Shown here piece after piece: positions 7,280 to 42,197 of a stretch of DNA of 64,000 nucleotides. Every line of letters begins with the position of its first letter. Positions within the stretch are counted from its first letter, which is position 1. Below the pieces are notes generated by a model. That model saw only the letters and a program-made list of their open reading frames with translations, was not told where the DNA came from and did not search any database. Made by a program: the position numbers and the translations under genes. The stretch is from Coriobacteriales bacterium (GTDB taxonomy: Bacteria; Actinomycetota; Coriobacteriia; Anaerosomatales; JACRBU01), in NCBI GenBank assembly GCA_016213085.1, contig JACRBU010000157.1, forward strand, positions 1,065-65,064. Reading direction: 5' to 3'.

Positions 7280-8112
7280 GCGTCGGAGGGCCCGGGTCCC
7301 GTTTCGCCGATCTCGGCGGTCTCGGGGTTCAGGGACCCTGAGCGGTAGCCGTCCAAGTCAAGCGAGACCCAGCGAAAACCCGCGCCCCGGGTCAGCTCGC
7401 TGATCGACTCGCGCAACTGAACCGCGCGCTCGACATCTTCGGCGGGCAGCTCGATGCGTGCCACATCGCCGTGCGCACGGATGCGCACCTGCCCGAACCC
7501 CAGCGCGCTCACGCGCTCCTCAGCCTGTCGCACGCGAGCGATAGCGTCATCAGTGATCGGCGTGCCGAAGGGGATGCGCGAAGCGAGGCACGCCATCGAC
7601 GGTTTGTCCCAGTTCGGAAGAGCGAGCAGACGGGCGGCCCGACGGACGTCCGCCTTCGTCATCCGGCATTCCTGCAGGGGAGAGCGCACGCCGGATTCCC
7701 GGGCGGCCCTGTGCCCCGGTCGATGGTCGTCGAGGTCGTCGAAGTTGGCGCCGTCCAGGATGACGTCGAGGTCCTGCGTGTCCGCGAGCCTGCGGAGCTG
7801 CGTGAACAGCTCGCTCTTGCAGTGGTAGCAGCGGTCGGGAGGGTTCGACGCCAGCCGAGCATCGGCGAGCTCGCGCGTCTCGATCTCCTCGTAGCGAAGC
7901 CCCAGTTCGCTCGCGAGGGCGCGGGCTGCCTGCGTCTCCCCGGCGGGCGAGAGGTCGGAGATCGCGTGAACCGCGAGTGCCCTGTCTCCGAGCACCGCAC
8001 GGCTCGCCACCGCGAGAAGCGTGGAATCGACGCCGCCGGAGAAGGCGACGACGACGCCGCGAAGGGGGGAGAGCGTCTCGAGCAGCTCGGCGTACTTCTC
8101 AGTGATATGCAC
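7276..8112 (-). CDS. PP-loop ATP pyrophosphatase, LarE-like sulfur transferase family
   Basis: Contains SGGVDS (VAFSGGVDSTLL) and the conserved Cys region PSMACLASRIPFG. The start was reset to the GTG at 8112, preceded by GAGGA. The track ORF runs to 8352 and is an upstream extension. Confidence 0.8.
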   Translation of the reverse strand: MHITEKYAELLETLSPLRGVVVAFSGGVDSTLLAVASRAVLGDRALAVHAISDLSPAGETQAARALASELGLRYEEIETRELADARLASNPPDRCYHCKSELFTQLRRLADTQDLDVILDGANFDDLDDHRPGHRAARESGVRSPLQECRMTKADVRRAARLLALPNWDKPSMACLASRIPFGTPITDDAIARVRQAEERVSALGFGQVRIRAHGDVARIELPAEDVERAVQLRESISELTRGAGFRWVSLDLDGYRSGSLNPETAEIGETGPGPSDA

Positions 8113-8258
8113 TGATTCCTCGCGAACGTTTGGAGAAACGACGGAAGCAGAGTATATCGTTGAAGTACTGTTCTCGTTTTCCGTCGCGGGAAAGAGAACA
8201 CCTAGGACGCACTGACCGGCACGCGTGACGTCGCACACTGGGAGCGGAAGGACCATCA

Positions 8259-10256
8259 ATGGCTGACAACCCGGAGACGAGCAGCGGTTTCGAGCACCTC
8301 TCTGCCGAAGAGAGCATGATCGCTCCGCCCGCTGGGTTCGCCGAGGCTGCACGGATCAAGTCCCTCGATCGGTATCGGCAAGACTACGAACGCTCGGTGG
8401 GCGATTCCGCCGACTTCTGGCTCGAGCAGGCGCGCGAGAACCTCGAATGGATCGAGCCGCCGAGCGTGGGGCTGCAGGGCGGGTTCGACAAGCTCGACTT
8501 CACGTGGTTCGCCGACGGGAAGCTCAACGTCTCGATCAACTGCCTCGACCGGCATCTGTCCACGTGGCGCCGGAACAAGGCCGCCCTCATCTGGGAGGGC
8601 GATGACGGGTCGAGCCGTACGTTCACCTACCAGCAGCTTCACTACGAGGTCTGCCGGTTCGCGAACGTGCTGCGCAAGAAGGGCATTCGCAAGGGCGACC
8701 GAGTCGCCGTCTACCTGCCGATGATCCCCGAGCTTCCTATCACCATGCTCGCGTGCGCGCGGGTCGGCGCGATCCACTCGGTCGTCTTCGGCGGCTTCTC
8801 GGCGAGCGCGCTGCGGGGACGCATCCAGGACAGCGGGGCCAAGCTCCTCGTCACGGCAGACGAGGGCATTCGCGGTGGCCGCAAGGTGCCGCTGAAGGTG
8901 GCGGCGGACGAGGCGCTCTTCGAGTGCCCGAGCATCGACGCGGTCGTGGTCGTCAAGCGCGGTAAGGGCGACGTGGACATGGAGCCCGGTCGCGACACGT
9001 GGTGGCACCAGGAGATGACGGCGCCGGAGACTCGGGGGTCGGAGGCTTTCGAGCCGATGAACGCCGAGAACCCGCTTTTCATCCTGTACACGTCGGGTTC
9101 GACGGGCAAGCCCAAGGGCGTCGTCCACACCACGGGCGGCTACCTCACCTACACCAACCGGACGTTCGTCGACGTCTTCGACTACCACGACGATGATGTC
9201 TTCTGGTGTACGGCCGACATCGGGTGGATCACCGGTCACAGCTACATCGTGTACGGGCCTCTGTCCGCTGGAGCGACCACGCTCATGTTCGAGGGCGTGC
9301 CGACCTATCCCGACCCTGGGCGTTTCTGGCAGATCGTCGAGAAGTACCGGGTGTCGATCTTCTACACCGCACCCACGGCGATCCGGGCGCTCATGCGTCA
9401 CGGCGAGGGCTGGCCTCAGCGCTACGACCTCAGCAGCCTGAGGCTGCTCGGCACCGTCGGCGAGCCGATCAACCCGGATGTCGGGTTGTGGTACCGACGG
9501 ACCATCGGCGCCGACACGGCCCCGGTCGTCGACACGTACTGGCAGACCGAAACCGGCGGCATCGTCATCACGCCGCTACCCGGGGCGATCCCCACGAAGC
9601 CCGGCTCTGCGACACTCCCGTACTTCGGCATCGAAGCGAGCGTCCTTCGTGAGGACGGCTCCCAAGTCGAGATCAACGAGGGCGGTTACCTGTGCATCGA
9701 CAAGCCGTGGCCGGCGATGTTGCGCGGCGTTTGGGGCGATTCGTCCGACAAGGCGCGACTGCGCGAGGTCTACTTCGAGCGCTTCCCGGGACGCTACTTC
9801 ACCGGTGACGGTGCGCGCATCGACGACGACAACTACTACTGGCTGCTCGGTCGTGTGGACGACGTCATCAACGTGAGCGGCCACCGTCTCGGCACGGCCG
9901 AGATCGAGAGCGTACTCGTCTCCCACGAGGCCGTGAGCGAGGCCGCCGTCGTCGGTTTCCCGCACCCGGTGAAGGGCGAGGGCATCCTTGCGTACGTGGT
10001 TCTCCGCGACGGGCACTATCCGAGCGACGAGCTCGGCAAGATCCTCAAAGGCCACGTTCGCAAGAGCATCGGACCGATCGCCGCCCCCGACGTCGTCCAG
10101 TTCACGCCGGATCTCCCGAAGACCCGCTCGGGGAAGATCATGCGACGCATCCTGCGCAAGGTCGCCGCAGGAGTCACGAACATGGAAGAGTTCGGGGATC
10201 TGTCGACCCTGGCCGACCCGAGCGTGGTCAAGCAGCTGATGTCGTTCGACAAGTAG
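8259..10256 (+). CDS. acs: Acetyl-CoA synthetase (AMP-forming)
   Basis: 665 aa with the AMP-binding signature [19 protein letters not shown] and a C-terminal [11 protein letters not shown] motif. Confidence 0.95.
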
Positions 10257-10287
10257 GCGCCGCAGGCGGGGCCCGGCGAACAGCCAG

Positions 10288-10800
10288 CTAGAGGACCGCT
10301 GTCGCGCTCACCGTCGCCGTGAACGTGTACGTGCCTGCGCTCGAGTAGCTGGACGGCATGTCGAGCTGGGTGTCGCAGGTCACCGTCGTCCCCGGAAGCA
10401 GCGACGTCATCAGGACGTTGGAAGACCCCGAGACCCACACGGAGCCTCCGGACGTCTTCACGAACTTCCAGCTGTACTGGTTCGCCCCGGGGGAGTCCGA
10501 CTCCACGGCCGTCCACGACCCGCCGCCGCCCTGCCTCGTCGCCGCTCCGCCCTGGATGAGGATGCGGCAGGGCAGGAGCCCGGTGCTCTGCACGACCGTC
10601 TGCTCACTGCCGGTCGGCGGGACGTTCGTCGTCCCGTGACCTTGCGATCCGTAATCGAGCGATTCGCCCGAGTTCACATTGACGCCATAGAGCAGATCGC
10701 CGGCTGCGGGGCTCGGGCGCTGGAACATCGGCAGCAGACCGGCGACGAACAGAGCGAACGCTACCGCGAAAGACAAGGTGGCAAGGTGGCGCCTTGTCAT
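10288..10800 (-). CDS. Small secreted beta-rich protein, paralog of 12127..12636 (last gene of a four-gene envelope operon)
   Basis: Signal/anchor sequence LATLSFAVAFALFVAGLL. Shared blocks with the paralog include VNV.SG.SLDYGS, TNV.PTG..QTV, GGGG.SWT, Y.W.FV, LDMP.SY and F.ATV.ATA. The ATGA start overlaps the previous gene's stop. Confidence 0.6.
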   Translation of the reverse strand: MTRRHLATLSFAVAFALFVAGLLPMFQRPSPAAGDLLYGVNVNSGESLDYGSQGHGTTNVPPTGSEQTVVQSTGLLPCRILIQGGAATRQGGGGSWTAVESDSPGANQYSWKFVKTSGGSVWVSGSSNVLMTSLLPGTTVTCDTQLDMPSSYSSAGTYTFTATVSATAVL

Positions 10801-11444
10801 CGGCTCGCTCTCTCACTCGAGTTCGCATCCGTGAGCGGCGCGATGTCAGCCTCGCGGACATCGGTGACGAAGCCCTCCTCGACGGCGAACCACATGTATC
10901 GCCGCGAGAGCTCGGAGTCCGCTTCGAGGCGGTCGGCGACTTCGGCGAGCGTGACGCTCGTCCATCCGCTCGGGGTGCGCATTCGCACGGGAGTGCCCTT
11001 GGCCGCATAGAGCGTGTCGGTCCTGCCGTGGTGACCGAGAACGTAGACCCCTTCTTCGGTCGTGTCGCCATTGGACGCAGCCACGGACGCAGCGGTCTTG
11101 CCGGTCAGCAGCTGACCGGGGAAGAAGTGCACGATCAGCACGCCGTCGTCCTCCTCGATTCGACTGAAGCGCCCGAGGTATCGCGAGCTGTCCTCGGCGG
11201 CGGGCGAAGCGACGGTCGCCGTCGCGCCTGTCGAAGGCGCGCCTCCGCTTCGCGCGAGTTCCGCCTCCACCTGGGCGAGGCGAGTGTTGGCCGCTGAGAC
11301 TTGGCGCTGCACGTACGCGATGACGCCCGCGCACAGCGCAAGTACGATCACGACAAGCACGACGGGCCGGGCATCGAAGACGAAGGGCTCCCGCTCCTCG
11401 GGCTGCGCGATGCGTTCGGAATGTATGTCCGAGTGATGTATCAC
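10797..11444 (-). CDS. N-terminally membrane-anchored hypothetical protein (TM, short coiled coil, about 130-aa extracytoplasmic domain)
   Basis: 215 aa with TM PVVLVVIVLALCAGVIAYV followed by SAANTRLAQVEAELARS. I recognise no domain. GTGA/ATGA overlaps couple it to both neighbours. Confidence 0.5.
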   Translation of the reverse strand: MIHHSDIHSERIAQPEEREPFVFDARPVVLVVIVLALCAGVIAYVQRQVSAANTRLAQVEAELARSGGAPSTGATATVASPAAEDSSRYLGRFSRIEEDDGVLIVHFFPGQLLTGKTAASVAASNGDTTEEGVYVLGHHGRTDTLYAAKGTPVRMRTPSGWTSVTLAEVADRLEADSELSRRYMWFAVEEGFVTDVREADIAPLTDANSSERASR

Positions 11445-12079
11445 GTGAGATCACCCTGGGGCGAGGGTCCGGAGTCCTCGCGCCGGCGGTTCGGCAGGAG
11501 TCCCAGTCCGATGGCAGCGAAGATGCCTGCCAGAGCAAGCAGGCCCGCGTACGACCACGGCGCGTATCGCGCGAAGAACCCGACGACCAGCCCCCATCCG
11601 ATGACGAGCGGATTGCCTCGAGCGACGCTCACGGTCAGCCGGGGACCGGCGGCGACGTTGAGGAGCGCGCCGCTCGACGAGGGTACCTGCCGGTCGGATG
11701 TTCCGAGAAGCAGCGCCCCGTAGTCGCCGGCGACAGCCGAAGCCGGCACGTCGACACGCGTGTCGAATGTCATGCTGGAATGGGGAGGGATCGTTGCGCT
11801 GGCGGGGGAGAACGTGAACCAGGACGCCTCAGGGGTCCGCACGCCCTCGACGGGTGCGACACGCATGACGTAGGTGGCTGCCACGTCTCCCGTATTGAAG
11901 ATCGTGATGGTCGGGAGTTGCTTGCTGCTCCCTGGAGTGAGCGGCTCCTCGATCGTGATCCTTCCGGTGTCGGTTCCCGCACCGATGCTCGCCGCCGACG
12001 CCATGGTCGGTGCCACCAGTGCGCAAACCATCGCGACGGTCAGTATCGATCGCATCCGGGTCCGCCTCACCGTTGCCAT
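11441..12079 (-). CDS. Secreted single beta-sandwich-like protein with a C-terminal TM anchor
   Basis: The start was reset to the ATG at 12079 (MATVRRTRMRSILTVAMVCALVAPTMASA signal peptide). The pattern LPTITIFNTGDVAATYVMRV...FTFSPASATIPPHSSMTFDTRVDVP...GDYGALLLG resembles CARDB/NEW3/DUF916-type or PapD-like sandwiches. C-terminal hydrophobic helices are followed by RRRED. Confidence 0.55.
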   Translation of the reverse strand: MATVRRTRMRSILTVAMVCALVAPTMASAASIGAGTDTGRITIEEPLTPGSSKQLPTITIFNTGDVAATYVMRVAPVEGVRTPEASWFTFSPASATIPPHSSMTFDTRVDVPASAVAGDYGALLLGTSDRQVPSSSGALLNVAAGPRLTVSVARGNPLVIGWGLVVGFFARYAPWSYAGLLALAGIFAAIGLGLLPNRRREDSGPSPQGDLT

Positions 12080-12126
12080 CCCTTCGCCGCTGGCACGTCG
12101 CCGGTGCAGTGACACGCGTTGCGCGC

Positions 12127-12636
12127 CTACGGTGCCGTCGCAGCAACCGTGGCCGAGAACGTGAACACCGCAGGGGTGGTGTAGCTTGTCGGCATGTCGA
12201 GGTAGGTGTCGTAGGTCTTCGTTCCCGCTGGCGCCAAGCTCGCGACGAGCGTACTCGCGCTGGAGATCACCGCTACGTCGGTCACGCCCTCCACGAAGCG
12301 CCACCGGTACTCGTTGGCTGCGGGTGCGAGGGCGACGGGCGTCCAGCTCGTGCCGCCGCCTCCGGGTGTGGCGTCGCCGCCGGTGATCGTGATCTTCTCG
12401 TCAGCGTTGCCGGTGTTCGAGATGACGGTCTGCGTGAGTCCGGTCGGCTGCACGTTGGTCGCGCCGGCGGCGCGACTGCCGTAGTCCAGGGACGCGCCTG
12501 AGTCGACGTTGACCGCGTAGGTCGGTGTCGCCGTCACGGTGCCTGTGATGGTGGTGCCCGCCGTGGCGATCGCTGGCAGGGTGACGACGAGTGCGACGGA
12601 CACGCATACCGCGGCCCATCCAAGTCGCCGCTTCAT
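12127..12636 (-). CDS. Small secreted beta-rich protein, paralog of 10288..10800 (first gene of the envelope operon)
   Basis: Signal peptide MKRRLGWAAVCVSVALVVTLPAIATAG and a strong SD (GGGAGGAGG) upstream. By eye it is roughly 45% identical to the 10288 paralog over the mature region. Confidence 0.6.
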   Translation of the reverse strand: MKRRLGWAAVCVSVALVVTLPAIATAGTTITGTVTATPTYAVNVDSGASLDYGSRAAGATNVQPTGLTQTVISNTGNADEKITITGGDATPGGGGTSWTPVALAPAANEYRWRFVEGVTDVAVISSASTLVASLAPAGTKTYDTYLDMPTSYTTPAVFTFSATVAATAP

Positions 12637-12884
12637 CGCCGCTACCTCCTCCCGGCCCTCTGGGGGCCGACATGACGCTTGGAGGCGCGAGGAACTGGCC
12701 CGGCAGTCGGCGCTGCGCCGTTCCCCTCGGTGAACGCTGGCCGCGCGGCGGCTCCCTCGAGCCCCGCACGTCTGGTTATTCCCTCTGTTCTATCGGCAGG
12801 GTTCTCATCGGGGATTAGCGATGAGGTGATGGGCGAGCAAACGTGACGCTGCACACGGCCCCTACGGGAACGACACCCGCCAGC

Positions 12885-15507
<2,623 letters not shown>

Positions 15508-16725
15508 CTACAGAGAGTAGCCAACTTCAGCGTGCTCGGTGACGTCAAGACCCTGAACTTCGACATCCTTGGCCACACGCAGGCCAAAGACCTTCTCGAT
15601 CGCTTTCAGCATTACCCAAGTCAGCCCGAATGAATAGGTGACAACCACAGCGGTGCCGATCAGCTGGGGGACGATGAGCGCGGTGCTTCCCTCGATGAGT
15701 CCCGATACACCGCCGATTCCGTTGACCGCGAGCACGGCGATAGCGAGCGTTCCAAAGACGCCGCCGGCGCCATGCACGCCAACCACGTCGAGGGAGTCGT
15801 CGTAGCCGAGCCGGTCCTTCAGGAGCACCGCCCAGTAGCAGAGGGCCCCGGCGCACATCCCGATCACGAGCGCGCCGAGCGGCGAGACGAAGCCCGAGGC
15901 AGGGGTGACGGTCGCGAGTCCCGCAACCGCTCCGGTCGCGGCTCCGAGCGTCGTGGCGCGTCCCGTGTGGAAGCGCTCGGCGAGAAGCCACGTGAGCATG
16001 CCGGCCGCTGCGGCGACCTGCGTCGCGATGAACGCGGCGATCGCCTGGTCGTTGGCTGCAAGTGCAGAGCCGGCGTTGAAGCCGAACCAGCCGAACCACA
16101 GGATGCCGGTACCGAGCAGCGTCATAGTGAGGTTGTGAGGTGCGATGTCGGGGTTACCGTAGTCGATCCGCTTGCCGAGGACGATCGCCGCGGCCAATGC
16201 GGCAGCGGCGCTCGACGCGTGGACGACCAGGCCGCCGGCAAAGTCCTTGACGCCGAGCTGAGCGAGCCAGCCGCCGCCCCAGATCCAGTGCGCGACAGGC
16301 GCATACACGAGCAGCACCCAAAGCACGGAGAGGATCGCCCACGAGCGGAACCTCATCCGCTCGGCGAAGGCGCCGGTCATGAGCGCTGGCGTGATGATCG
16401 CGAACATGCACTGGTAGATCGCGAACGCGCCCATCGGCAAGGTGCCCGTCCTCCCGCCGAGGACCCCGGCGAACCCGACGTGGTCGAGGCCGCCGATGAA
16501 GCTGCCCAGCGGGCCCGTGGCTGGCCCGAAGGCAAGCGTGTAGCCGATGAGCAACCACACGACCGTGATGGTCCCGATCGCGAACACGGACTGCATCATC
16601 ATGGAAAGGACATTCTTCGTCCTGACCATCCCGCCGTAGAACAGCGCAAGTCCGGGCGTCATGAAGAGCACGAGTGCGGCCGACACCAGCACGAATGCGG
16701 TGTCGCCGGCGTTGACTCCAGCCAC
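15508..16725 (-). CDS. amt: Ammonium transporter (copy 1)
   Basis: 405 aa, polytopic, with Amt signatures (FMTPGLALFYGGMVR, DFAGG.VVH, WFGWFGFNAGS). GTG start preceded by AAGGGGAGG. Confidence 0.95.
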   Translation of the reverse strand: MAGVNAGDTAFVLVSAALVLFMTPGLALFYGGMVRTKNVLSMMMQSVFAIGTITVVWLLIGYTLAFGPATGPLGSFIGGLDHVGFAGVLGGRTGTLPMGAFAIYQCMFAIITPALMTGAFAERMRFRSWAILSVLWVLLVYAPVAHWIWGGGWLAQLGVKDFAGGLVVHASSAAAALAAAIVLGKRIDYGNPDIAPHNLTMTLLGTGILWFGWFGFNAGSALAANDQAIAAFIATQVAAAAGMLTWLLAERFHTGRATTLGAATGAVAGLATVTPASGFVSPLGALVIGMCAGALCYWAVLLKDRLGYDDSLDVVGVHGAGGVFGTLAIAVLAVNGIGGVSGLIEGSTALIVPQLIGTAVVVTYSFGLTWVMLKAIEKVFGLRVAKDVEVQGLDVTEHAEVGYSL

Positions 16726-16799
16726 GGGGCCTCCCCTTTGTCAGACCGCGAGTCGCGAGTCGCGGCTACCGTCAGCTGCCTGCACGGTATGAGGGGCGT

Positions 16800-16815
16800 G
16801 TTTCCGTGATGTTTC
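16800..16815 (-). promoter_or_regulatory. Direct repeat GAAACA-N5-GAAACA on the gene strand, 75-90 nt upstream of amt copy 1; candidate OmpR-family (GlnR-like) box
   Basis: The plus strand reads GTTTCcgtgatGTTTC. The same arrangement occurs upstream of amt copy 2 (18657..18672). Confidence 0.35.
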
Positions 16816-16903
16816 GACGGGATTTCGCCGAGGTATCGCAAACGGGCCCCATCGCGGCGGTCGACCGCAGTGGGGCCCGTTTCTTCCTGCCGGAAGGAGC
16901 CGG

Positions 16904-17344
<441 letters not shown>

Positions 17345-18571
17345 TTACTCGAAGATGTAGCCCTCTTCCGCGTGCTCGCTGATGTCGAGACCGCGTGACT
17401 CGACCTCATCGCTCACGCGCAGGCCCATGACCATGTCGATGACCTTCAGGAAGATGATGCTCAGCACGAAGGAGAACGCCCACGCGGCGACGATGCCGAC
17501 GAGCTGGAGCACGATCTGGCTCGGGTTGCCGTAGAGAAGACCGTTGCGACCGGCCTCGTTGATGGTCGTGGTGGCGAACACGCCGGTCAGAAGCGCACCG
17601 AGGGTTCCGCCGACTCCGTGGATGCCCACCACGTCGAGGGCATCGTCGAAGCCGAACTTGCCCTTGATGAAGAGGCCGAAGTAGCAGGCGACGCCGACGA
17701 CGAGGCCGATGACGATCGCGGCCCAGGGCTCGACGTATCCGGCGGCCGGCGTGACTCCGACGAGGCCGGCGACAGCGCCGGAGGCGGCACCGAGAACGGT
17801 CGGCTTGCCGGCGTGCATGGTCTCGACGAGGGTCCAAGCCAAGAGCGCGGCGGCGGCCAGATGCGTGTTCATGAACGCCGAACCGGCGAGACCGTTCGCG
17901 GCAAGCGCCGAACCAGCGTTGAAGCCGAACCAGCCGAACCACAGGATGCCCGCGCCGAGCACCGTCATCGGCAGGTTGTGAGGGTGGATCTGGTCGGTGC
18001 CGAGGTCGCGACGCTTGCCGAGCATGATGGCAGCAGCGAGGGCGGCGGCAGCCGATGAGATGTGGACGACGGTCCCGCCGGCGAAGTCGAGCGCGCCGAG
18101 CCTGAACAGCCAGCCGTTCGTCTGCCATACCCAGTGGGCGAGCGGCGAGTAGACGAAGATCGCCCAGAGCGTCGCGAAGATGACATACGCACGAAACTTC
18201 ATGCGCTCGGCGATCGCGCCCGTGATGAGGGCGACCGTGATGATCGCGAACATCCCCTGGTACATGGCGAAGACGCTCAGCGGGATCGTCCCGAAGAGCT
18301 CGCCGTTGACGTTCATGAGCCCGGTCATGCTGAAGTCGCCGATGAACGCCGACAGCGATCCGGTGCCCTCGCCGAACGCGAGCGTGAATCCGACCAGCGC
18401 CCAGATGACCGACACCAGGCCCATGGCGAAGAAGCTGTGCATCGTGGTGGAGAGCACATTCTTCTTGCGGACCATGCCGCTATAGAACGCGGCAAGACCC
18501 GGCGTCATGAACAGCACCAGGGCCGCCGATGCGAGCATCCAGGCGGTGTCGCCTGTGTTCAGCTCAGGCAT
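17345..18571 (-). CDS. amt: Ammonium transporter (copy 2)
   Basis: The start was reset to the ATG at 18571 (MPELNTGDTAWMLASAALVLFMTPGLAAFYSGMVR), preceded by GAAGGAGGA. The track ORF runs to 19042 and is a false extension. Confidence 0.93.
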   Translation of the reverse strand: MPELNTGDTAWMLASAALVLFMTPGLAAFYSGMVRKKNVLSTTMHSFFAMGLVSVIWALVGFTLAFGEGTGSLSAFIGDFSMTGLMNVNGELFGTIPLSVFAMYQGMFAIITVALITGAIAERMKFRAYVIFATLWAIFVYSPLAHWVWQTNGWLFRLGALDFAGGTVVHISSAAAALAAAIMLGKRRDLGTDQIHPHNLPMTVLGAGILWFGWFGFNAGSALAANGLAGSAFMNTHLAAAALLAWTLVETMHAGKPTVLGAASGAVAGLVGVTPAAGYVEPWAAIVIGLVVGVACYFGLFIKGKFGFDDALDVVGIHGVGGTLGALLTGVFATTTINEAGRNGLLYGNPSQIVLQLVGIVAAWAFSFVLSIIFLKVIDMVMGLRVSDEVESRGLDISEHAEEGYIFE

Positions 18572-18656
18572 CCTCGTCCTCCTTCTCGTGCAAGTAGCCG
18601 GGGCGGTTTCAGAGCGCCCGACTGCCGACAGGTTGGGGGCAGCGTACGGACCCCTT

Positions 18657-18672
18657 GTTTCGCATGTGTTTC
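18657..18672 (-). promoter_or_regulatory. Direct repeat GAAACA-N5-GAAACA on the gene strand, 86-101 nt upstream of amt copy 2
   Basis: The plus strand reads GTTTCgcatgtGTTTC. More GAAAC/GAAAACC repeats lie at 18692-18727 in the same divergent region. Confidence 0.35.
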
Positions 18673-18857
18673 GGTGTGGTGTCGCGCCCGTGAAACCTGA
18701 AACAGCGGCGAAAACCTGCGGAAAACCCCGCCTGGCGGTCGGGGGCGGCGTCGTCCGCTGACGATGTGGAACGGTTGACGTGGGCAGCGCGCGGGAACCG
18801 TTGAGGCAAGAGTGAGATGATTCGAGTCGTACGGTATCGACGCGAGAGGGGACGGGG

Positions 18858-19364
18858 ATGAAGCGCTTCGGACTAGTGATCGCGGCACTGCTCTGCATCG
18901 CCATGGCGGCCGGACTGGTCGGCTGCCAGCAGATCGCGGAACAAGCCGCCGAGTCAGCCGCCGAGAAGGCGACCGGAACGAAGATCGACAAGGAAGGCGA
19001 CTCCATCACGATCGAGGGCAAGGAAGGGGAGAAGGCCACCATCGGGCAGGGTGAGCTCCCCGCCGACTTCCCGACAGATGCTCCGGTCTACCCGGGGGCC
19101 AAGGTCGTCGCCAGCTACGAGCAGGGGACCGGCGCGGCCAAGTCCTACGTCGTGACGTTCGAGACAGCCGACCCGGCCAGCAAGGTCAACGACTGGTACG
19201 TGACCGAGATCGAGGCTAAGGGTTGGACGATCGACACGAAGGCGAACCAGGGCGAGAACTACATCCTGAACGCAACCAAGGGCACCCAGCGTCTGGCCCT
19301 CACCATCGCCGCCGATCAGGGGCAGGCGAAGACGCTCATCAACGAGACCGTGACGCCGGAGTAG
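18858..19364 (+). CDS. Hypothetical lipoprotein
   Basis: Signal peptide with lipobox (LLCIAMAAGLVGC). 168 aa, with no domain I recognise. Confidence 0.6.
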   Translation: MKRFGLVIAALLCIAMAAGLVGCQQIAEQAAESAAEKATGTKIDKEGDSITIEGKEGEKATIGQGELPADFPTDAPVYPGAKVVASYEQGTGAAKSYVVTFETADPASKVNDWYVTEIEAKGWTIDTKANQGENYILNATKGTQRLALTIAADQGQAKTLINETVTPE

Positions 19365-42110: not shown

Positions 42111-42197
42111 GTCGGAGTGGCGGAATGGCAGACGCGCTAGGTTGAGGGCCTAGTGTCCCCTAGGGACGTGTGGGTTCAACTCCCACCTCCGACACCA
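42111..42197 (+). tRNA. tRNA-Leu (anticodon GAG), with encoded CCA
   Basis: Acceptor stem GTCGGAG/CTCCGAC, anticodon stem-loop CTAGG-TTGAGGG-CCTAG, a long variable arm, and T-arm GTGGG-TTCAACT-CCCAC, then A-CCA. Confidence 0.9.

Follow-up and report, generated by a model that had tools for sequence, protein, structure and literature searches.

Gene organisation of the cluster

The window, the whole stretch of 64,000 nucleotides that was analysed, comes from an uncultured, gut-type, Gram-positive member of the Coriobacteriales (Actinomycetota), a monoderm host. The ORF listing places four genes, g1 to g4, on the minus strand between positions 10288 and 12636 (Table 1). The original prediction described them as co-directional and tightly coupled, which is borne out by the open reading frames and by the sequence of the junctions. 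Both 4-nt overlaps are real, since the stop/start junctions read GTGA (g2/g3) and ATGA (g3/g4). The 47-nt gap that had been given for g1 and g2 holds if g2 starts at the ATG at 12079; with the ATG at 12055, which is used in the NCBI model of g2 from the same MAG (P0003, 204 aa), the gap is 71 nt, and a GTG at 12070 is a further possible start. The GC content of the window is about 67%, and many long overlapping ORFs are present on both strands.

Directly upstream of the cluster and on the same strand lie amtB, glnK and glnD, and acs is convergent with the cluster. Neither a sigma-70-like promoter nor an intrinsic terminator was found within positions 10100-13000; the promoter of the operon is presumably located in the intergenic region between glnD and g1. 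The whole operon is found again with the same flanks (glnD, acs) in one relative (L001 plus L003), and the core of the cluster is found again in many distant loci. Because of this recurrence the cluster is more than a chance arrangement.

Table 1. Coordinates of the genes and features of the cluster.
Feature	Position	Strand	Description
g1	12127..12636	(-)	169 aa; predicted small secreted beta-sandwich protein
g2	11441..12079	(-)	212 aa; predicted membrane-tethered PapD-like/WxLIP_PGBD-like Ig protein
g3	10797..11444	(-)	215 aa; GTG start overlaps g2 stop; predicted bitopic membrane protein
g4	10288..10800	(-)	170 aa; g1 paralog; ATG overlaps g3 stop
Shine-Dalgarno-like GGGAGGAGG	12645..12653	(-)	8 nt 5' of g1 ATG; read from sequence
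glnD-g1 intergenic region	12637..12884	(-)	248 nt

None of the four proteins scores above a Pfam or NCBIfam cut-off. Sequence searches of PDB chains with g1, g2 and g3 returned nothing meaningful, and PDB profile searches with the profiles A2, A5 and A7 gave ASH/CFAP74-type noise only, so that the description of the operon as uncharacterised is upheld. The same is true for the reported absence of a sortase signal, an usher and a signal peptidase: no sortase gene is present in the region 8000-15500, no LPXTG motif occurs at the C-termini of g1, g4 and g2, no usher is among the four operon genes, and the cluster contains no peptidase gene. TasA/camelysin (Peptidase_M73) and SipW-type families had no Pfam or NCBIfam match.

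g1 and g4 are small beta-rich proteins

The first and the last gene, both coding for proteins of about 170 aa, had been proposed to be paralogous. Alignment of g1 with g4 yielded 53% identity over 131 aa (E 3e-39) and confirmed that the sequence blocks on which the proposal was built are shared; the two are paralogs. The high content of Thr, Ser, Gly and Ala was confirmed as well (51% in g1, 46% in g4), and the suggested all-beta structure is supported for g1 by an AF2 model (pLDDT 90.6). Signal peptides had been assigned to both proteins. The one of g1 is a canonical Sec signal peptide with a cleavage site between ATA and G at about residues 26/27; g4 starts with 21 hydrophobic residues, and its signal peptide is uncertain, because a clean AXA site is absent. 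The mature N-terminus of g1 carries a conserved strand (TTITGTVTATPT), which is missing from g4 and likewise from the g4 ortholog in the relative (P0006). g1 contains the motif GGGGTSW-T-P and ends with ...TVAATAP directly at the stop codon; the C-terminus of g4 reads ...SATAVL. g4 is a lineage-specific duplicate.

A word-index homology search with g1 retrieved only g1 itself and one 70% relative, and the family was revealed by an exhaustive profile search, which detected 141 cluster representatives in a set of 1.84 billion proteins. A GTDB scan using close g1 relatives gave no match (the GTDB pattern scan for g2 relied on a narrower g2 alignment). The g1 family is rare and undescribed; it is common in Patescibacteria, the tiny and parasitic bacteria of the CPR, and its range extends beyond the organism studied here. 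Nearly all small members have a mature N-terminal strand with alternating hydrophobic residues. The g1-type domain is also found C-terminally in large proteins with peptidase, lectin, propeller, LamG, LTD or RIP heads, where it forms the extreme C-terminus in 14 of the 15 cases seen, and in several of them (P0084, P0133, L002, L013) the N-terminal strand directly precedes the domain. No large protein of the family is encoded within the window, which contains two small forms only.

The statement that a WxL motif is absent has to be refined: the family consensus has a single W-T-L motif, which reads W-T-P in g1 itself. PF13731 (WxL) matched neither g1 nor g4 nor any of 133 family members, even at E<=10. 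When the mature family sequences were compared with eight domains of the WxL or WxL-like type, drawn from Paenibacillus, Arthrobacter, Clavibacter, Cellulosimicrobium and Streptomyces plasmids, hhalign values did not exceed 1%. A 67% hhalign match to an Arthrobacter protein vanished once the signal peptides were removed, and homology between the g1 family and WxL was therefore rejected as unproven. Homology of the family to FimA and FimH of E. coli was also rejected, since hhalign gave nothing.

With the g1 model, the best Foldseek matches were pilin-type Ig folds (E 0.013-0.2, TM 0.4-0.5), and nearly every match with a probability of at least 0.9 was a subunit of a donor-strand fibre. Among the 50 matches listed for g1, the WxL chain of the deposited complex of WxLIP with long WxL (9i25) was absent.

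g2 resembles WxLIP and pilus chaperones

For the second gene a single Ig-like domain and a C-terminal TM anchor had been predicted, and both were recovered in the AF2 model (pLDDT 76; core above 86). The protein comprises a signal peptide (cleaved between ASA and AS), one beta-sandwich (residues 40-152) and, behind it, an amphipathic helix and a TM helix (176-193); the tail is basic, of the RRR type, and conserved among homologs. Hydrophobic segments were located at residues 12-30 and 177-195. Conserved sequences are the mature N-terminus IGAGTDTGRI and the loop GALLNVAAGPRL; residues 31-41 are the most conserved block outside the core and have a pLDDT of about 45.

Foldseek matched the g2 model to PapD-like/ASH domains and to Caf1M, EcpB and DraB with E values from 1.5e-5 to 8e-4. 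The individual values were 1.5e-5 for the PapD-like domain of HYDIN, 7.7e-5 for Caf1M, 1.1e-4 for the solved WxLIP of E. faecium (9i1y) and 1.8e-4 for the same protein bound to long WxL (9i25_C). Profile comparisons pointed in the same direction: hhalign with the g2 profile (A5) gave 96.3% over 117 columns to a Clavibacter DUF916 protein, which scores 35.0 bits on Pfam WxLIP_PGBD (PF06030; cut-off 27.3), and 96.1% to a DUF916 protein of Xylanimonas; the value for a Firmicute DUF916 protein (Paenibacillus) was only 9%. A sub-threshold match to PapD_N was seen in a single g2 homolog, P0147, which reaches 20.7 bits (cut-off 23) over profile positions 19-124 of 126. PF06030 itself matched neither g2 at E<=1 nor any of six homologs. 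PF11797 (DUF3324/WxLIP_HBD) did not match g2, in which the single sandwich runs directly into the helices. Homology to E. coli FimC was rejected (hhalign 0.1%). We also rejected the Xylanimonas DUF916 locus as a bridge; its neighbours encode choice-of-anchor M/anchored-repeat transporter proteins and none of the g1 family. Judged by profile comparison and modelling, g2 is a remote homolog of DUF916/WxLIP_PGBD with a PapD-like fold, and the resemblance to WxL/DUF916 or chaperone systems that had been suspected thus found support in the hhalign values of 96%, the Foldseek match to WxLIP at 1e-4 and the predicted fold.

g3 is an accessory membrane protein

The N-terminal TM helix expected for the third gene product corresponds to a single hydrophobic 19-mer (residues 27-45). 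It is followed by a helical stretch, a linker rich in Ala, Thr and Ser and, at the C-terminus, a domain of some 125 aa with the motif F.PGQLLTG..A...A..G......YVLG. From the flanking sequence RERTKRK in the homolog of L003 we infer an N-in topology. Pfam, NCBIfam and PDB yielded nothing informative for g3, and homologs were found only in Coriobacteriia-type clusters (L003, L005, L006, L018, L023). g3 is a Coriobacteriia-type accessory.

The conserved unit consists of a g1-family protein and a g2-like tether

In all 12 loci with judgeable neighbours (the window, L001, L002, L004, L005, L006, L010, L011, L013, L015, L016 and L022) a gene with a g1 domain is located next to a g2 homolog or one gene away from it, and L023 is a thirteenth case of this neighbourhood. 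In five Patescibacteria-type loci the genes are arranged in the order large, small, g2-like, which equals the order of the minimal WxL cluster with large WxL, small WxL and WxLIP (PMC9772566, PMC10599100). Gene neighbourhood had been suggested as a check on the cluster, and the pairing of the small protein with g2 is constant across distant loci. The view of four genes as the conserved unit did not hold: this unit is a small or large g1-family protein together with a g2-like tether, g3 being an accessory and g4 a duplicate.

A candidate surface-display complex

The cluster probably, though by no means surely, encodes a divergent surface-display complex of the WxL/WxLIP type, the parts of which are joined by beta-strand augmentation. 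In favour of this reading are the constant neighbourhood, the gene order, the C-terminal position of the g1 domain, the predicted topology of g1 and g2, and the sequence and fold links of g2 to DUF916/WxLIP. Against it count the failure of the g1 family to match WxL by sequence, the missing WxL chain among the listed fold matches of g1, the single Ig domain and sub-threshold Pfam scores of g2, its low value with the Firmicute DUF916 protein, and the lack of a large family protein in the window. After export, g2 would remain fixed in the membrane through its C-terminal helix and present one PapD-like Ig domain. g1 and g4 would be secreted, and their C-terminally placed domain would be the docking partner of g2. 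The mode of docking is presumably beta-strand augmentation, in which parts of g2 whose fold is of low confidence when modelled alone could complete or extend the sheet of the g1-type domain. Two conserved segments are candidates, IG(A/V)G..G(K/R)I at the mature N-terminus and GA.VN.(A/G)AG.RL in a loop. For WxLIP, a loop is reported that is disordered in isolation and predicted to become ordered on binding of WxL (PMC10599100), and this loop parallels the poorly ordered conserved g2 block 31-41, a candidate interface. g4, lacking the N-terminal strand, may be an acceptor-only or membrane-proximal unit, and g3 would be a lineage-specific membrane-anchored accessory. In other organisms the same tether might hold large proteins that carry enzyme, lectin or toxin-like heads on the C-terminal domain. 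We infer that g1 and g2 interact physically in this mode, that the proteins are located at the cell surface and that they serve in adhesion or as a scaffold.

An usher-less, donor-strand-complemented fibre of monoderms is an alternative that we consider unlikely without thinking it far-fetched. Here g1 would be pilin-like and would polymerise, each subunit giving its N-terminal strand (TVTATVTP) to the one that follows, g4 (strandless) or the large lectin- or enzyme-headed proteins would be tip subunits like FimH and PapG, and g2 would act as a membrane-tethered PapD-like chaperone or as an anchor that caps or primes subunits. The Foldseek matches of g1 at or above 0.9 include the pilin domains of PapG and FimH as well as CsuA/B, CfaB, Caf1, PapA, the archaeal cannula protein CanA (9h8b) and the environmental fibril TLP-1b (9ikk) (PMC11494351; 10.1101/2024.12.30.630787); however, all fold matches of g1 are weak, with the E and TM values given above, and profile comparison gave nothing for FimA or FimH with the family or for FimC with g2. 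The matches of the g2 model to the chaperones Caf1M, EcpB and DraB (E 8e-5 to 8e-4) and the PapD_N score of P0147 (20.7 bits against 23) would suit a chaperone, but g2 has one Ig domain where the chaperones of chaperone-usher (CU) systems have two. The presence of the N-terminal strand in nearly all small members, and its absence from g4 and P0006, also speaks for this alternative. The same strand is also present inside the large proteins P0084, P0133, L002 and L013; since it lies there directly before the domain, it may be the domain's own A strand. The two-domain plan of tip adhesins is mirrored by the large proteins, whereas neither an usher nor a polymerase-like component is found in the cluster.

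Less probable still is the wider reading that the g1 family and g2 constitute an unrecognised usher-less chaperone-subunit fibre system of monoderms and Patescibacteria with the large proteins as tip effectors. In it, a PapD-like chaperone anchored in the membrane would be the site at which small subunits polymerise through donor-strand exchange, and the peptidase, lectin and RIP-toxin heads could possibly let CPR episymbionts contact host cells.

We regard it as improbable that the genes form a module for nutrient capture or another envelope function unrelated to display, in which the small Ig-like proteins bind substrate or cell wall alone, the linkage to amtB-glnK-glnD and acs is metabolic, and g2 and g3 are unrelated membrane proteins. 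One relative retains the position beside these genes, the first proposal for WxL clusters saw them as complexes for carbohydrate utilisation (PMC1534035), and actinobacterial DUF916 loci adjoin genes for GH43, LamG and Ricin proteins. Elsewhere, however, the flanks are wholly different (selB, chemotaxis genes, an integrase, CPR genes) and the pairing of the small protein with g2 is constant, which makes the nitrogen-gene neighbourhood incidental; in addition, the conserved core is without a transporter or enzyme. That the ORFs are spurious or decaying and functionless, as the high GC content (about 67%) and the long overlapping ORFs on both strands might suggest, is refuted by conserved homologs of all four proteins in other assemblies and by the confident fold of g1 (pLDDT 90.6), next to start/stop coupling and a strong Shine-Dalgarno sequence.

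WxL/WxLIP clusters are regarded as a speciality of Firmicutes with ties to adhesion and virulence, and how they work is only beginning to emerge. The same three-part logic, with a PapD-like tether in the membrane, small domain-only proteins and large cargo proteins that share a putative C-terminal docking domain, is shown here for Coriobacteriia and, more abundantly, for Patescibacteria; neither Pfam nor NCBIfam detects this domain or the minimal tether. The analysis defines two or three protein families that are new, namely the g1 domain, the g2 tether with its single domain, and g3, and it links WxLIP structurally to pilus chaperones. It also suggests a possible way for ultrasmall episymbionts to expose hydrolases, lectins and toxin-like domains at the cell surface. 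The operon itself offers something more modest, a compact model in which docking by strand augmentation can be tested against polymerisation.

Comparison with known systems

TasA, archaeal bundling pili and cannulae are likewise built from small secreted beta-sandwich subunits in monoderm envelopes, and CanA (9h8b) was matched. The present cluster differs from them in having no TasA/camelysin or SipW-type family and no signal peptidase gene, and they are without the membrane-tethered Ig partner that is conserved here.

With chaperone-usher pili the cluster shares the predicted PapD-like Ig fold of g2 and, according to weak Foldseek matches, a pilin-like Ig fold of g1. Further similarities are the plan of the large proteins, in which a head at the N-terminus is combined with a pilin-like domain at the C-terminus, and the alternating-hydrophobic N-terminal strand on most small subunits. 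Unlike in these pili, neither an usher nor an outer membrane is present, g2 is a single-domain protein predicted to be anchored in the membrane, the two-domain chaperone (PF00345 plus PF02753) is absent, and profiles show no similarity to Fim proteins.

[quoted passage not shown] The differences concern all components. The g1 domain has about 140 aa, does not match PF13731 and contains one W-T-(L/P) instead of two WxL motifs; g2 has a single Ig domain without DUF3324/HBD and 212 aa compared to 320-380 aa in WxLIP; g3 is N-terminally anchored, and an LPXTG partner is missing; the operon codes for two small proteins and no large one; and the genes are carried by Coriobacteriia and Patescibacteria, not by Bacilli. 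Both systems combine small, domain-only secreted proteins and large proteins that have the same C-terminal domain and variable heads with one Ig-fold protein carrying a signal peptide and a C-terminal TM helix, and the hosts are monoderm in either case. Each tether has conserved segments of poor order that are candidates for strand donation, and the binding mode predicted for WxLIP and WxL matches the strand augmentation proposed here for g2.

Organization of the operon

The four genes of the cluster (g1 to g4 in order of transcription) are arranged in tandem on the minus strand, in DNA with a GC content of about 0.62-0.69. The original prediction of four co-directional genes with two 4-nt overlaps was confirmed by the open reading frames and by the junctions, which read GTGA (g2/g3) and ATGA (g3/g4), showing that the overlaps are real. 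The 47-nt gap also predicted holds for the g2 ATG at 12079 and becomes 71 nt with the start chosen by NCBI (ATG at 12055); the signal peptide of g2 is retained with either start. A Shine-Dalgarno motif (GGGAGGAGG) is located 8 nt ahead of the g1 start, and neither a sigma-70-like promoter nor an intrinsic terminator was detected around the operon. The proteins HY876_08395 and HY876_08400 of a Coriobacteriales MAG at NCBI match the window exactly at the protein level, g1 and g2 being identical to NCBI MAG proteins. For g4, the database entry (P0005) and the window disagree at a single residue, position 55, where P0005 has Pro and the window His.

Immediately upstream, on the same strand, is a nitrogen-regulation block, whose second ammonium transporter gene encodes an N-terminal extension of ~165 aa. 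The order glnD-cluster-acs is retained in one relative (L001 and L003). The only Rfam/ARAGORN match in the 64-kb window is a tRNA gene.

Features of the window and of the loci compared
Feature	Sequence	Position	Strand	Description
g1	window	12127-12636	-	169 aa ORF
g2	window	11441-12079	-	212 aa ORF
g3	window	10797-11444	-	215 aa ORF, GTG start
g4	window	10288-10800	-	170 aa ORF
nitrogen-regulation block	window	12885-19042	-	upstream of cluster
glnD	window	12885-15161	-	upstream of cluster
PII/glnK	window	15142-15480	-	upstream of cluster
amtB	window	15508-16725	-	upstream of cluster
second ammonium transporter gene	window	17345-19042	-	upstream of cluster
acetyl-CoA synthetase gene	window			downstream of cluster, convergent
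tRNA-Leu(GAG)	window	42111-42197	+
large family protein	L016	1-2241		RIP match
gene after g2 homolog	L013	6642-7310
gene after g2 homolog	L015	4872-5486
gene after g2 homolog	L011	6553-7596
gene after g2 homolog	L016	3554-4666
flanking gene	L018	1431-1946	-
flanking gene	L023	135-1334	+
DUF916/WxLIP locus	L020	4149-4775		plasmid
DUF916/WxLIP locus	L025	4136-4780		plasmid
DUF916/WxLIP locus	L027	4341-4850		plasmid
DUF916/WxLIP locus	L026	2924-4855		plasmid

g2 is a membrane-tethered member of the PapD-like Ig superfamily

None of the four proteins reached the Pfam or NCBIfam cut-offs or had a sequence match in the PDB. The g2 protein consists of a signal peptide, one beta-sandwich, an amphipathic helix, a TM helix (residues 176-193) and a basic tail, and the AF2 model (pLDDT 76, Ig core above 86) agrees with the secreted, C-terminally anchored single Ig-like domain that had been predicted. 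A profile search returned eleven relatives and a DUF916-annotated protein of Xylanimonas ulmi (E 6e-5). Using hhalign, the g2 profile scored 96.1% against the Xylanimonas protein and 96.3% over 117 columns against a Clavibacter plasmid DUF916 protein, which itself passes Pfam WxLIP_PGBD (35.0 bits, cut-off 27.3). The score was only 9% against a Paenibacillus DUF916 protein and nil against FimC. One g2 homolog came near PapD_N without reaching the cut-off (20.7 bits, cut-off 23). Foldseek of the model yielded 58 PDB matches below E 1e-3, among them PapD-like/ASH/MSP domains (HYDIN, 1.5e-5), the pilus chaperones Caf1M (7.7e-5), EcpB and DraB, the E. faecium WxLIP (9i1y, 1.1e-4) and WxLIP bound to a long WxL protein (9i25, 1.8e-4). 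Because of these profile and fold matches, we assign g2 to the PapD-like Ig superfamily as a single-domain, membrane-tethered member; its closest sequence link is to DUF916/WxLIP_PGBD.

Among the most conserved blocks of 19 homologs, from Coriobacteriia-type to Patescibacteria, is the mature N-terminus IG(A/V)G..G(K/R)I, which is modelled with low confidence (pLDDT about 45). A conserved yet poorly placed block is the pattern expected of a segment that would become ordered upon partner binding.

g1 and g4 belong to a family outside Pfam

The proteins g1 and g4 are paralogs (53% identity over 131 aa, E 3e-39) and contain the common sequence blocks described in the original prediction. Of the signal peptides proposed for both, the one of g1 is a canonical Sec signal ending in ATA|G, followed by a strand-like segment (TTITGTVTATPT); g4 lacks this segment and starts with 21 hydrophobic residues and no clean AXA site. 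A word-index search with g1 found one relative only; when 1.84 billion cluster representatives were searched exhaustively with a profile (E<=1e-3), a family of 141 proteins emerged. Most are 160-180 aa long and start with a Sec signal and its AXA site, after which the mature protein begins with a short conserved stretch of the pattern TVxATVTP. Common to them are the blocks l.(Y/F)G and TN.GN, W-T-L after a Gly-rich turn, and MPTS, and the last strand lies no more than a few residues before the C-terminus. For the 133 members tested, no Pfam coverage was found even at E<=10.

Eight members are long, and in seven of these the family domain is located at the extreme C-terminus, preceded by C1 peptidase, legume-lectin-like, beta-propeller or LamG regions. 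One large protein (L016) has a Pfam match to ribosome-inactivating proteins (RIP; E 2.9e-7, 30.6 bits) before its C-terminal domain, which suggests that the system may display toxin-like cargo.

The conserved unit is a family domain beside g2

The relative from sample SRR18840174 (L001, L003) has the same operon and flanks. The Coriobacteriaceae MAG L005 and contigs L006, L018 and L023 encode small, g2-like and g3-like proteins, the latter two in either order, and in the metagenome contig L004 a small protein (33% identical) is paired with a g2 homolog. Large proteins with a C-terminal family domain (HMM E-values 1e-20, 6e-18, 4e-19) directly precede the g2 homolog in the metagenome contigs L002 and L022. 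Scanning GTDB with the g2 alignment revealed seven loci in Saccharibacteria, Levybacteria, Beckwithbacteria and other Patescibacteria-type MAGs, and the order large, small, g2 homolog was found in all five that have upstream DNA. Two of the seven (L011, L016) are titled 'uncultured Gammaproteobacteria'; with a GC content of 34-38% and the gene content of the Patescibacteria loci, they may be wrongly labelled or mis-binned. A family-domain gene stands beside the g2 homolog in every locus with judgeable neighbours. The uncharacterised envelope module originally proposed was upheld as observation and reading; its conserved unit had to be corrected.

Homologs of g3 were found, among the loci compared, only in Coriobacteriia-type ones. 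The N-terminal anchor predicted for g3 corresponds to a single hydrophobic segment (27-45). After it come a helical stretch, a linker of low complexity and, at the C-terminus, a domain of ~125 aa. Since the L003 homolog has a strongly basic N-flank, the predicted topology is N-in, C-out. The g3 protein would be a lineage-specific, membrane-anchored accessory.

In the Patescibacteria loci L010-L016 the g2 homolog is followed by a gene for a conserved secreted protein with the N-terminal motif SATIKISVCGN and a dockerin/EF-hand-like C-terminus, CDLNxDGxCxLxDFSxLMxY (EF-hand_1 25.5 bits, Dockerin_1 19.6 bits). In L012-L015 the next gene encodes a polytopic membrane protein (about 340 aa), and both proteins may belong to the CPR version as additional components. 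Flanking genes in L018 and L023 include those for a ThsB-like TIR protein and a Fic protein, and integrase and HTH transposase-like genes lie upstream in L006, hinting that the cluster sometimes resides in variable or mobile regions.

Surface display or fibre

The AF2 model of g1 on the family alignment (pLDDT 90.6) has ten strands. Foldseek gave no PDB match with an E-value under 1e-3; the top-ranking ones (E 0.013-0.2, probability above 0.9, TM 0.4-0.5) are almost all donor-strand-complemented fibre subunits. They comprise the PapG and FimH pilin domains, CsuA/B, CfaB, Caf1, PapA, the archaeal cannula protein 9h8b and the environmental fibril TLP-1b (9ikk). Donor-strand exchange is the reported mode of assembly of TLP-1b (PMC11494351), and the cannula fibre is likewise donor-strand complemented (10.1101/2024.12.30.630787).

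We give slightly better than even chances to surface display tethered by g2, in which its conserved, poorly ordered segments would augment a sheet of the g1-type domain, thereby anchoring g1 and g4 to the cell surface; in other organisms, the tether would also hold large cargo proteins. The main alternative is a chaperone-assisted donor-strand fibre, in which g1 would polymerise and strand-less tip units would be provided by g4 or the large proteins. It would fit the predominance of pilins among the g1 matches, the resemblance of the g2 fold to chaperones and the missing N-terminal strand of g4. Against it stand the weak fold scores, the presence of the 'donor' strand inside large proteins as well, and the lack of profile similarity to Fim proteins. 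We consider a fibre rather unlikely. Strand augmentation is common to both readings; they differ in the polymerisation of g1. A possible new fibre type would be considerably more interesting if true. The system extends to Patescibacteria.

Comparison with WxL/WxLIP clusters

WxL clusters of Firmicutes have three parts: a small WxL protein that, once mature, consists of just the domain, a large one, with the domain always C-terminal beneath variable adhesive heads, and WxLIP, composed of the Ig-like DUF916 and DUF3324 and a C-terminal TM helix (PMC9772566, PMC10599100). In an AlphaFold prediction, a WxLIP loop that is disordered alone becomes a strand completing the WxL sandwich (PMC10599100); a complex of WxLIP with a long WxL protein has since been deposited (9i25).

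Homology of the g1 family to WxL was set aside as unproven, the initial 67% hhalign match being due to the signal peptide. The test panel consisted of WxL and WxL-like domains assembled from plasmid loci; local alignments pair the same three blocks in the family and in WxL domains, which is suggestive only. On actinobacterial plasmids, DUF916/WxLIP genes lie beside genes for small 'hypothetical' proteins and GH43, LamG or Ricin proteins, and these neighbours carry divergent WxL domains. An Arthrobacter WxL-like protein scored 20.4 bits, below the cut-off of 25; Clavibacter and Cellulosimicrobium proteins were not detected by Pfam and are linked by phmmer to the C-terminus of Streptomyces Ricin/GH43 proteins. 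WxL clusters thus appear to be under-annotated in Actinomycetota.

The profile and fold matches of g2 and the neighbourhoods support the predicted WxL/DUF916-like or chaperone-assisted fibre reading. The partner domain, unlike that of WxL clusters, is no recognisable WxL domain, and an LPXTG partner is absent; unlike WxLIP, g2 has no second Ig domain. Since these three features fail, and with the three-part plan reproduced point by point and the ancestry of the tether in common, we classify the system as an unannotated, WxL/WxLIP-like variant of surface-display cluster outside the Pfam families.
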